Assembly: GCA_964464815.1 (NCBI GenBank)
Contig: CAYXHF010000004.1
Span: forward strand, 2,483-66,482
Source: an uncultured Faecalibacterium sp.
GTDB taxonomy: Bacteria; Bacillota; Clostridia; Christensenellales; Aristaeellaceae
Length of the DNA stretch: 64,000 bases
Reading direction: 5' to 3'
In this document: piece after piece, positions 42,355-62,938 of the stretch
Position numbering within the stretch: the first letter of the stretch is position 1
Layout: the number at the start of each line of letters is the position of its first letter
The notes under the pieces: generated by a model
Told to the model about the DNA's origin: nothing
Databases searched by the model: none
The model's input: only the letters and a program-made list of their open reading frames with translations
Made by a program: the position numbers and the translations under genes

Positions 42355-42897
42355 TTACCATGATAGCACGTGCGCCTGACGCAATCGCCGCTGTAGCAGC
42401 GTTCCCAGCATCACCGCCAGCGCGATTTTGATGGCATCTCCCATCAGAAACGGCGCGACACATGTCGCCACCGCCGCATAGAAGGACACGCCCGATTGGA
42501 TGCAGAACCAGACAGACCCCAGCAGATACAGCACCACTTCACCTGCCGCCATACACAGGCAATGCACCCAGCGCTTTTCGCTTCGTGCCATGAGGCTGCC
42601 TGCCACCGCCACCATCGGCAGATAGCCCAGCAGATAGCCACCGGTCGACCCAAGGAGCCTTCCCACGCCGCCCATATAGCCACTGAATACCGGCAGACCC
42701 AGCAGACCCAGCAGCAGATAAGCACCCGTGGCCATCGTTGCCTGACGCCATGGCAGCAGATACAGCATCAGAAACAGCACCAGCGTGCTCATGCTCACCG
42801 GCACAACACCCAGCGGCAGGGCAAGCGGTGCAATCACGCACAAAAGCGCGGTCATCAGCGCCATCATCACCCACATCCGCACACCCTTTCGCGGCAC
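42355..42897 (-). CDS. bioY: biotin transporter BioY (ECF S component)
   Basis: Typical BioY pattern GLLGLPVFSGYMGGVGRLLGSTGGYLLGY. A GTG at 42897 with GAGGAGG 8 nt upstream is preferred over the TTG at 42924. Confidence 0.8.
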   Translation of the reverse strand: MPRKGVRMWVMMALMTALLCVIAPLALPLGVVPVSMSTLVLFLMLYLLPWRQATMATGAYLLLGLLGLPVFSGYMGGVGRLLGSTGGYLLGYLPMVAVAGSLMARSEKRWVHCLCMAAGEVVLYLLGSVWFCIQSGVSFYAAVATCVAPFLMGDAIKIALAVMLGTLLQRRLRQAHVLSW

Positions 42898-42936
42898 AAA
42901 AAAAGCCTCCTCAACGTCAACCAAATCTTTCGATTC

Positions 42937-42965
42937 AGTTTACCATTGAGAAGGGCTTTTGTCAA
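42937..42965 (-). promoter_or_regulatory. candidate sigma-A promoter of bioY
   Basis: On the minus strand: TTGACA (42965-42960), 17-nt spacer, TAAACT (42942-42937). Confidence 0.45.
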
Positions 42966-42983
42966 GAAACCGTGCTTATACTA

Positions 42984-43197
42984 ATTTACGTCTAAAACAT
43001 GACACCGAGCATCGTGGATTTTTCTCTCTGGCAAAGCTGAGTGCCACGAGGCGTACTGGAGGTACGCGCGAACGGAACGAAGCAAAGCCAGATGGAGGTC
43101 AGGCTTTTGCCTGACTAGCGCCGGGCTTTGCCCGGTGATGGCCGATGCGGAACAATCCGCTGTGCGAATGTCATGGGGTAGATGAAAATTAGTATTA
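42984..43197. repeat. 214-nt structured dispersed repeat C, copy 1 (candidate ncRNA or mobile element)
   Basis: Aligns without gaps to 62423-62636, with about 16 mismatches by hand count. Closing stem CATGACA (42998-43004) / TGTCATG (43169-43175). Hairpins at 43051-43067, 43098-43115 and 43121-43135. Confidence 0.85.
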
Positions 43198-43578
43198 CTG
43201 CTTCTTTTCGCCATTACGCTCGGCCATCAGACGGCAAATCGCATCGAACGATTCCTCCGACAGGTCGTGCTCAATTTTGCAGGCATCCTCGCGCGCAATT
43301 TCTTCATCCACACCAAGGCTGATAAAAAAGTTCGCCAACGTCTTATGGCGCGCATAAATGCTCCGCGCAATTTCCATGCCCATTGGCGTCAGCTTAATGA
43401 GGTTATCCTCATCCATAGTCAAATAACCGTTTTCGCGAAGGCGCTTCATCGCCACGCTGACAGAAGGCTTCGTCACGCCCAGCAGCAGCGAAATATCCAC
43501 CGAACGCGCATAGCCTTTGGACTCCGTCAGGCGCAATATGGCCTCCAGATAATCCTCCGAAGATTCGTGAATGTTCAT
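43195..43578 (-). CDS. DtxR/MntR family metal-dependent transcriptional regulator
   Basis: SEDYLEAILRL..., HTH region ARSVDISLLLGVTKPSVSVAMKRLRENGYL, and metal-site region ARHKTLANFF...EDACKIEHDLS. AAAGGAG lies before the ATG at 43578. Confidence 0.85.
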   Translation of the reverse strand: MNIHESSEDYLEAILRLTESKGYARSVDISLLLGVTKPSVSVAMKRLRENGYLTMDEDNLIKLTPMGMEIARSIYARHKTLANFFISLGVDEEIAREDACKIEHDLSEESFDAICRLMAERNGEKKQ

Positions 43579-43619
43579 GGGTACTCCTTTCAAAGCAAGC
43601 TAGCTTTGCCTTTTTTACT

Positions 43620-62243: not shown

Positions 62244-62273
62244 GCCTCCTCGCCGTTTCCTGCGCTTTTCTAA

Positions 62274-62338
62274 ATTAGTTTGACATAACTAATCTGTCGC
62301 AACGGTGTTAGTTTATCACAACTAACCATCAATGTCAA
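62274..62338 (-). promoter_or_regulatory. feo promoter with two palindromic operator sites
   Basis: On the minus strand: TTGACA (62338-62333), 17-nt spacer, TAAACT (62315-62310). The palindromes are ATTAGTT-TGACAT-AACTAAT (62274-62293) and GTTAGTT-TATCAC-AACTAAC (62307-62326), with centres 33 bp apart. The second fills the -35/-10 spacer. Confidence 0.6.
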
Positions 62339-62422
62339 CCCCTGTTTCCCGCTTTTTTTCCTTTTCGGATAAAACCCCTGCAAATTGGGAAGAATGGCAG
62401 GCAAAAAGGAATTGTTATCCTC

Positions 62423-62636
62423 ATTTCCGTCTAAAACATGTCACCGAGCATCGTGGATTTTTCTTTCTGGCAAAGCTGCGTGCAGCGAGGCGTACTGGAG
62501 GTACGCGCGAGCGGAACGAAGCAAAGCCAGATGGAGGTCAGGTTTTTGCCTGACTAGCGCCGGGCTTGGCCCGGTGATGGCCGATGCAGAAACATACACT
62601 GTGCGAATGACATGGAGTAGATGAAAATTAGTATTA
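62423..62636. repeat. 214-nt structured dispersed repeat C, copy 2
   Basis: Gap-free alignment to 42984-43197. The closing stem here is CATGTCA (62437-62443) / TGACATG (62608-62614), a compensatory change relative to copy 1. Confidence 0.85.
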
Positions 62637-62653
62637 AAAAACAGGAGGCAAAA

Positions 62654-62938
62654 ATGAAGGAATGGGCGGCCTGGATGGCGAACAAAATGGAGGAGACACT
62701 TTTTCGCTTGGAGCAGCTCCGTCTGGCGGAGTTTCTTGCCTATGAGCAGGACTGGAAGCGTCGCTTGCTGATGCAGTTTGTTTCCGGCCTTGCCCGTGGT
62801 CTGGGCACAGCCATCGGCTTCACGCTGCTGGGTGCGCTGGCCGTCTGGCTGCTGCAAGGTCTGGTACAGCGGAATCTGCCGGTCATTGGCGATTTTCTGG
62901 CCAAGCTTCTCGCCCTGGTGGAAGGAAAAGGGCAATAA
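62654..62938 (+). CDS. small membrane protein (DUF5665-like)
   Basis: AGGAGG at 62643-62648 lies 5 nt before the ATG at 62654. 94 aa with one or two C-terminal TM segments (GTAIGFTLLGALAVWLL). The family name is from memory. Confidence 0.6.
   Translation: MKEWAAWMANKMEETLFRLEQLRLAEFLAYEQDWKRRLLMQFVSGLARGLGTAIGFTLLGALAVWLLQGLVQRNLPVIGDFLAKLLALVEGKGQ

Follow-up and report, generated by a model that had tools for sequence, protein, structure and literature searches.

The repeat that occurs twice in the stretch of DNA analysed here (the window, 64,000 nt from an uncultured Faecalibacterium sp.) very probably belongs to a family of MITEs that would be moved in trans by a transposase and that duplicate 3 bp of T-N-A sequence on insertion. 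We assign it to this class because the units are small (161-251 nt), contain no gene and in particular no transposase gene, end in terminal inverted repeats, are flanked by a target-site duplication, and occur in many dispersed copies for which precise empty sites can be found. A preliminary description of the same repeat had taken it for an unclassified structured RNA, and part of that reading stands, in that the multi-hairpin fold is real and conserved; the part that made it an RNA gene does not, since inverted-repeat ends, a 3-bp duplication, many insertion sites and empty sites are the marks of mobile DNA. A match to an IS or MITE terminus had been named there as an observation that would speak against an RNA, and the terminal inverted repeats together with the duplication amount, in spirit, to such a terminus.

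Boundaries, variants and distribution of the unit

The two copies as originally delimited, 42984-43197 and 62423-62636, are 214 nt each and align without gaps with exactly 16 mismatches (7 transitions and 9 transversions), in agreement with an earlier hand count of about 16. A repeat finder gives a slightly longer match of 222 nt at 92% identity (42976-43197 versus 62415-62636), beyond which the two loci are unrelated. With the boundaries set by the family alignment and by the point at which the flanks diverge, the full unit is 216 nt in both cases and lies at 42979-43194 for copy 1 and 62418-62633 for copy 2, both in the plus orientation. It ends in imperfect 23-nt terminal inverted repeats (TACTAATT..TCTA...CATG), the ends taking the forms TACTAATT....TCTAAAACATG and CATG...TAGATGA.AATTAGTA. 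In copy 1 the left repeat, TACTAATTTACGTCTAAAACATG, occupies 42979-43001 on the plus strand and the right repeat, which reads TACTAATTTTCATCTACCCCATG as its reverse complement, occupies 43172-43194 on the minus strand; the left repeat of copy 2 is degenerate (TCCTCATTT...). A search of the window with the terminal-repeat pattern returned four matches, which are the four ends of the two copies and nothing else, against 0.01 expected. Weaker inverted repeats continue inward for about 54 nt, with 37-40 of 56 positions identical between the arms (38 of 56 in copy 1). Immediately outside these ends the trinucleotide TTA brackets each copy on both sides, at 42976-42978 and 43195-43197 around copy 1 and at 62415-62417 and 62634-62636 around copy 2; its reading as a target-site duplication draws on its presence at both ends and on the family-wide statistic for TNA flanks given below. 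Neither the inverted repeats at the outermost bases nor the bracketing TTA had entered the preliminary description.

The internal features listed in that description are present as it gave them. Copy 1 has CATGACA/TGTCATG as its closing helix where copy 2 has CATGTCA/TGACATG, so that A43002/T43171 in the one corresponds to T62441/A62610 in the other, and three plus-strand internal hairpins are intact in both copies: the apical hairpin GCGTAC-TGGAG-GTACGC at 43051-43067, GTCAGGC-TTTT-GCCTGAC at 43098-43115 and CCGGGC-TTT-GCCCGG at 43121-43135, with a C-to-T difference at 43104/62543 and a loop difference at 43129/62568. The alignments place the second and third of these hairpins in an internal module, 43090-43147, which is found in the long variants only and is missing from the 161-nt variant. 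Units of 161, 216 and 251 nt are found, and they differ by whole internal GC-rich hairpins: nearly all copies are 161 nt long, both window copies are 216 nt long with two extra internal hairpins, and a single copy of 251 nt in an uncultured Faecalibacterium MAG (L137:4786-5036) carries a third. The argument that the unit is non-coding also holds. Translation from the ATG at 42999 meets a stop after 13 codons in copy 1 but continues past that point in copy 2, and a search for an ORF conserved in both copies found none, the plus-frame peptide differing at 5 residues. The possibility of a small protein was therefore rejected, since the substitutions leave no open frame with an unchanged peptide and a stop interrupts one of the frames in copy 1 only.

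The earlier suggestion that BLAST be used to look for more copies was borne out, and the copies obtained have unrelated flanks. At least about 75 further copies were found; their sources are human-gut metagenome contigs, Faecalibacterium sp. CAG:74 and a single uncultured Faecalibacterium MAG. When metagenomes were scanned with the invariant apical hairpin as probe (AGGCGTACTGGAGGTACGC), at least 120 stretches were matched; among the 120 matches listed, at least about 72 contigs contain the element, all of them from human-gut assemblies, and the environmental matches have no similarity beyond the probe itself. An exact-match scan of genomes with the left-end pattern yielded 17 stretches, of which 11 are from Faecalibacterium sp. 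CAG:74, four are from the one uncultured Faecalibacterium MAG, and two are chance hits without a partner end. These last two (loci L148 and L150) are the matches in genomes other than Faecalibacterium, they resemble the element nowhere else, and about two such hits are expected by chance. In a phage collection BLAST matched three copies, all in unannotated scaffolds that are labelled "Bacteriophage sp." and come from human fecal samples; three exact-pattern scans of viral contigs gave no match, and BLAST against a plasmid collection found no similar sequence. The host range seen is a few Faecalibacterium species, with two copies seen in the window's own genome.

Across these copies the homology has sharp edges, beginning at TACTAATT... 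and ending at ...AATTAGTA, and the flanks differ from locus to locus, giving 49 distinct combinations of unrelated flanks. Upstream of bioY, short-read (Logan) contigs from relatives of the window organism are interrupted within the element, and those that cover the region upstream of the DUF5665 gene cease to match the window precisely where copy 2 ends on the right, immediately upstream of its right TTA at 62634-62636; breaks and divergence of this kind are what is expected of a repeat.

Insertion, target-site duplication and empty sites

The flanks carry the signature of insertion. A T-N-A trinucleotide lies directly outside the left end in 47 of the 49 flanks and outside the right end in 48 of 49, and the same trinucleotide is present on both sides in 35 of the 49 distinct flank combinations, compared with a mean of 11.7 under permutation; none of 20,000 permutations reached 35. 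The matched pairs cover all four central bases (TTA, TCA, TAA and TGA). The remaining 14 combinations have unequal trinucleotides, 10 of them with TGA on the left, and several of the 14 are demonstrable flank shuffles. At loci L031, L063, L089, L091, L095, L125 and others, a single left flank is connected by way of the element to as many as three different right flanks, which reflects either recombination among the copies or the assembly of chimeric metagenome contigs across the repeat.

Filled and empty versions of the same site were found for two insertions. Loci L025 and L058 read GGAATAGG-TTA-[element]-TTA-CTTTCTCG, and loci L062 and L095 read GGAATAGG-TTA-CTTTCTCG with a single TTA and with flanks 98-99% identical to those of L025/L058 over 300 nt on both sides. 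The second insertion is filled in L106 and empty in L091, which has a single TTA in CACGATT-TTA-TTGTCCGCC; here the left flanks are 98.7% identical over 300 nt, and on the right the match is confirmed over the first 20 nt only, with one mismatch, the gapless identity over 300 nt being 47%. The element has therefore inserted, has duplicated a trinucleotide in doing so, and is polymorphic for presence and absence, and the difference between strains whose flanks are 98-99% identical points to recent activity. As to how this would come about, a transposase encoded elsewhere would recognise the ends of the element, and the element would be inserted at T-N-A with duplication of those three base pairs. 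One consideration in reading the duplication is that, with the T and the A invariant, a 3-bp duplication is inseparable from a 1-bp duplication of an element whose ends are one base longer, and we have adopted the 3-bp reading.

A clean empty site for copy 2 in related strains was considered and rejected, as the upstream sequence there, GCCGAATTATTCAGAGATTCC, mismatches the left flank in the window and is absent from the window altogether. In loci L001-L010, the first ~30 nt, upstream of the DUF5665 gene, read GTGCTGCCGAATTATTCAGAGATTCC-TTA-AAAAACAGGAGG, and every one of these contigs ends there; the TTA and all downstream sequence are common to these contigs and to the window (62634-62654), and nothing upstream is. 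These strains may have a different insertion or a rearrangement at the same TTA.

Precise duplication also bears on whether the element belongs with hairpin-rich repeats that do not insert by way of inverted-repeat ends. A non-transposing repeat of the REP/BIME type, or a palindrome-associated element of the IS200/IS605 type moved as single-stranded DNA, would share with the present family its richness in hairpins, its intergenic position and its strand-asymmetric fold. REP/BIME and IS200/IS605-type elements insert beside a fixed short target, make no duplication and are without terminal inverted repeats, whereas here the same TNA stands on both flanks, exactly one TNA stands in the empty sites, and terminal inverted repeats are present. 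Because both the inverted-repeat ends and the duplication are in place, we discount elements of these types, which strike us as an extremely improbable explanation.

A second, related family adds to the evidence that the repeat is a transposing MITE. Its members are 159 nt long with the ends TACTATTTCCARAT...ATYTGGAAATAGTA, and at one locus, represented by four contigs, a copy is nested at a TTA in the right inverted repeat of a copy of the first family, with the TTA duplicated. Elsewhere members of the second family have their own matched TGA, TAA and TTA flanks, and they co-occur with the first family in many contigs; copies lie at L097:6844-7002, L054:7916-8074 and L051:9068-9226, and also in L049, L079, L084, L088, L127, L130 and L149. 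The second family was sought in the window and is absent from it.

The window does contain a different MITE-like element of 222 nt, present as two direct copies that are 100% identical (1669-1890 and 2661-2882) and have long inverted-repeat ends, CCCTCTCAGTC...GCTCTCCCAAAGGGAGAGCC / GGCTCTCCCTCTGGGAGAGC...GACTGAGAGGG. The ~770 bp between them hold two small plus-strand ORFs (~1998-2242 and ~2246-2557) resembling an antitoxin/toxin pair, and the two copies with the ORFs that they enclose resemble a small composite transposon.

Fold, covariation and neighbouring genes

The plus strand of copy 1 folds at -103.4 kcal/mol (z -8.8 against dinucleotide shuffles) and that of copy 2 at -89.2 kcal/mol (z -5.4), and the minus strands fold at -85.9 kcal/mol (z -7.1) and -77.9 kcal/mol (z -4.8), respectively, so that the plus strand is the more stable by 11-17 kcal/mol. 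A strong fold follows from the architecture of the element, because inverted-repeat arms of ~54 nt will make any transcript of either strand fold back on itself as one long hairpin topped by an apical domain. In the RNAalifold structure calculated for 57 distinct copies, 98.8% of cells are paired. The apical hairpin is invariant in all 57 aligned copies, and its helix (helix 5, seven pairs) never varies, though the probe used to collect the copies spans this hairpin.

The preliminary description had drawn attention to the double change at 43002/43171 as a compensatory substitution. The swap exists, but the pair sits just inside the inverted-repeat arms, and in fecal copies it is G-C in one and a broken G/A in two others. 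Across the alignment six pairs are changed on both sides, where shuffles give 1.9 such pairs and slid controls give 0-2, a count taken over 57 related copies with shuffles that ignore relatedness. Columns 38/216, for example, change from A-U to G-C, and columns 51/203 from C-G to U-A. A further paired change distinguishes hairpin 2 of the window (GTCAGGC/GCCTGAC) from that of L137 (GTCGGGC/GCCCGAC). The transition mismatches between the arms are also uneven, with wobble pairs on the plus and minus strands in ratios of 4:0 in the 161-nt consensus, 5:1 in window copy 1, 3:2 in window copy 2, 4:2 in the 251-nt L137 copy and 2:0 in the second family.

These observations raise the question of whether the MITE's plus-strand transcript has in addition been selected as a structured RNA, possibly as a hairpin that stabilises or guides the processing of a transcript, or as an RNA partner of the transposase. 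The six both-sided changes, the double change in hairpin 2, the plus-strand G-U excess in all five sequences compared, the 11-17 kcal/mol advantage of the plus-strand fold, and the addition of whole hairpin modules in the 216- and 251-nt variants would all fit such selection, and two transposase sites that simply decayed would be expected to show less compensatory change and fewer plus-strand G-U pairs. The copies are close kin, however, so that a few events have been counted many times in the both-sided changes and the shuffle control takes no account of relatedness. Template switching at quasi-palindromes during replication yields paired changes without selection, and an asymmetric protein-binding site would explain just as well the conserved sequence asymmetry TTTTTCG / TTTTCCG that the two families have in common. 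We regard the compensatory changes and the G-U excess as real but weak evidence for what may be a single-strand role. The positions of the window copies also count against selection of the transcript, as copy 1 could be transcribed only from the mntR side, and hence as its minus strand, and copy 2 faces the downstream gene on the plus strand; nor did a crude survey of 49 loci reveal a rule of orientation. On balance we consider a selected plus-strand RNA unlikely. More probably, whatever the MITE does to host RNA, be it through a stable transcript hairpin or an outward-facing promoter, would be a side effect and not the reason that the MITE exists.

The genes around the two copies differ. Copy 1 has minus-strand genes on both sides: a BioY gene at 42355-42897, assigned by Pfam BioY, and a DtxR/MntR-like gene at 43195-43593, named from its translation. 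Read on the minus strand, the right TTA of copy 1 (43195-43197) is the TAA stop codon of the DtxR/MntR-like gene, which the duplication has thus kept intact. A promoter-like site for bioY, TTGACA-17-TAAACT, lies at 42965-42937, that is, between the element and bioY, which argues that copy 1 is not a bioY leader. Copy 2 lies between the promoter region of a feoA-feoA-feoB cluster and a DUF5665-lspA-rluD cluster (Pfam assignments), its end being 17-20 nt upstream of the DUF5665 start at 62654. A promoter-like motif, ATGACA-16-TAGTAT, is formed by the element's right end, its last T being contributed by the duplication, and in copy 2 (62607-62634, plus strand) it faces outward toward the DUF5665 gene, whose start codon is 20 nt away; the consensus scan scores it at 9/12 matches, as a motif match only. 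Orientation relative to the genes is inconsistent within the window, and the survey of 49 loci, which used rough gene calls with at least one known gene mis-called, showed no rule.

Separately from the element, the palindromes AATTAGTTTGACATAACTAATC and GTTAGTTTATCACAACTAAC in the window at 62260-62340 overlap a promoter-like site (TTGACA-17-TAAACT) upstream of feoA-feoA-feoB, and from their sequence they look like operators for a metal-responsive repressor; a DtxR/MntR-like gene adjoins copy 1. An exact-protein look-up of the MntR-like protein and of FeoA, with the start codons used here, returned no record.

With the gene context in hand, the reading closest to the original one can be weighed, namely that the repeat is a stand-alone structured non-coding RNA gene or a cis-regulatory leader, dispersed because the genome needs several copies. 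It would account for the strong conserved fold and for the lack of any coding signal. An earlier check by eye had found no fit to the S-box, T-box, 6S, SRP, tmRNA and common riboswitch consensus features, and cmscan against Rfam (including raiA, ROOL, OLE and riboswitches) gave no hit, either at gathering thresholds across the entire window or at E<=10 in 42800-43400. The lack of an Rfam match counts against such a gene or leader, and a scan for a terminator-like site inside either copy found none. A leader RNA was rejected in its own right, there being no constant position or orientation and a mixture of neighbours across the 49 loci (crude gene calls); in the window the bioY promoter intervenes between copy 1 and bioY, and the flanking genes are unrelated in function and orientation. 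Inverted-repeat ends, TNA duplication, empty sites and a nested insertion, moreover, are the products of transposition and not of gene duplication, and we find an RNA gene or leader very unlikely.

Transposase type and relation to known elements

From the TNA duplication we infer that the transposase acting on this MITE family may be of the IS5 / PIF-Harbinger type. A transposase of the IS630 / Tc1-mariner group, which duplicates TA, was rejected, as the TCA, TGA and TAA sites that are duplicated here would read CA, GA and AA as 2-bp duplications. Groups of the IS1031 type within the IS5 family prefer TNA, and the ends of IS5-family elements usually begin GG or GA, in contrast to those of the Faecalibacterium element, which begin TAC. 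In its 3-bp duplication at T-N-A the element resembles the IS5 family (IS1031, IS427 and ISL2 groups) and the eukaryotic PIF/Harbinger superfamily with its Tourist-like MITEs. A 3-bp duplication is made by canonical Harbinger elements, which have been grouped with the prokaryotic IS5 family (PMC12730594). By exact matching, neither the genome scan nor ~0.9 Mb of loci yielded an IS5-type transposase gene with ends like these, and, given this and the TAC ends, it is the duplication that carries the IS5 assignment. Searches for an autonomous partner gave a similar result: the exact-pattern genome scan found only MITE copies and the two chance hits, TACTA...TAGTA pairs lying 60-4000 nt apart in the ~0.9 Mb of loci were MITEs and chance pairs only, and inverted 11-mer pairs 0.5-4 kb apart with the same flanking trinucleotides in the same ~0.9 Mb included no autonomous element, the sole exception to an empty result being two MITEs of the second family that lie 3.2 kb apart around ordinary sugar-metabolism genes.

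A full-text literature search found no description of the family. An analysis of 183,232 genomes published in 2024 (Nucleic Acids Res, PMC11602168) reports MITEs to be widespread in prokaryotes and uses them to link viral sequences to hosts that include Faecalibacterium; its main text mentions Faecalibacterium only in passing and contains no description of this family, of TNA duplication or of hairpin-module variants. The family, which is recently active, and its sister family are thus apparently undescribed so far in Faecalibacterium.

The assignment removes a false lead toward a new class of structured RNA, and specialists in mobile elements should find nothing surprising in it. Faecalibacterium is an abundant genus of the human gut, and because strains that are 98-99% identical differ in presence or absence of the element, its insertions could serve as strain markers. 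Copies lie at the ends and starts of genes, so the expression of neighbouring genes may be altered, and repeats of this kind break short-read assemblies, which is relevant to the binning of metagenomes. Should the plus-strand hairpin prove to have been selected, it would act as an RNA in its own right, perhaps as a portable stabilising or processing signal or as an RNA partner of the transposase.

In kind the element is an ordinary bacterial MITE. The Correia elements of Neisseria, the RUP elements of Streptococcus pneumoniae and the ERIC/IRU elements of enterobacteria are non-coding units of ~100-250 nt with terminal inverted repeats and short target-site duplications, which occur in many intergenic copies, form long hairpins when transcribed and sometimes have outward-facing promoter-like motifs. 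The Faecalibacterium element is like Correia, RUP and ERIC in its size, its ends, its intergenic position, the hairpin that its RNA would form and its possible outward promoter, and it is unlike Correia and RUP, in which TA is duplicated, in that it duplicates TNA, including TCA, TGA and TAA.
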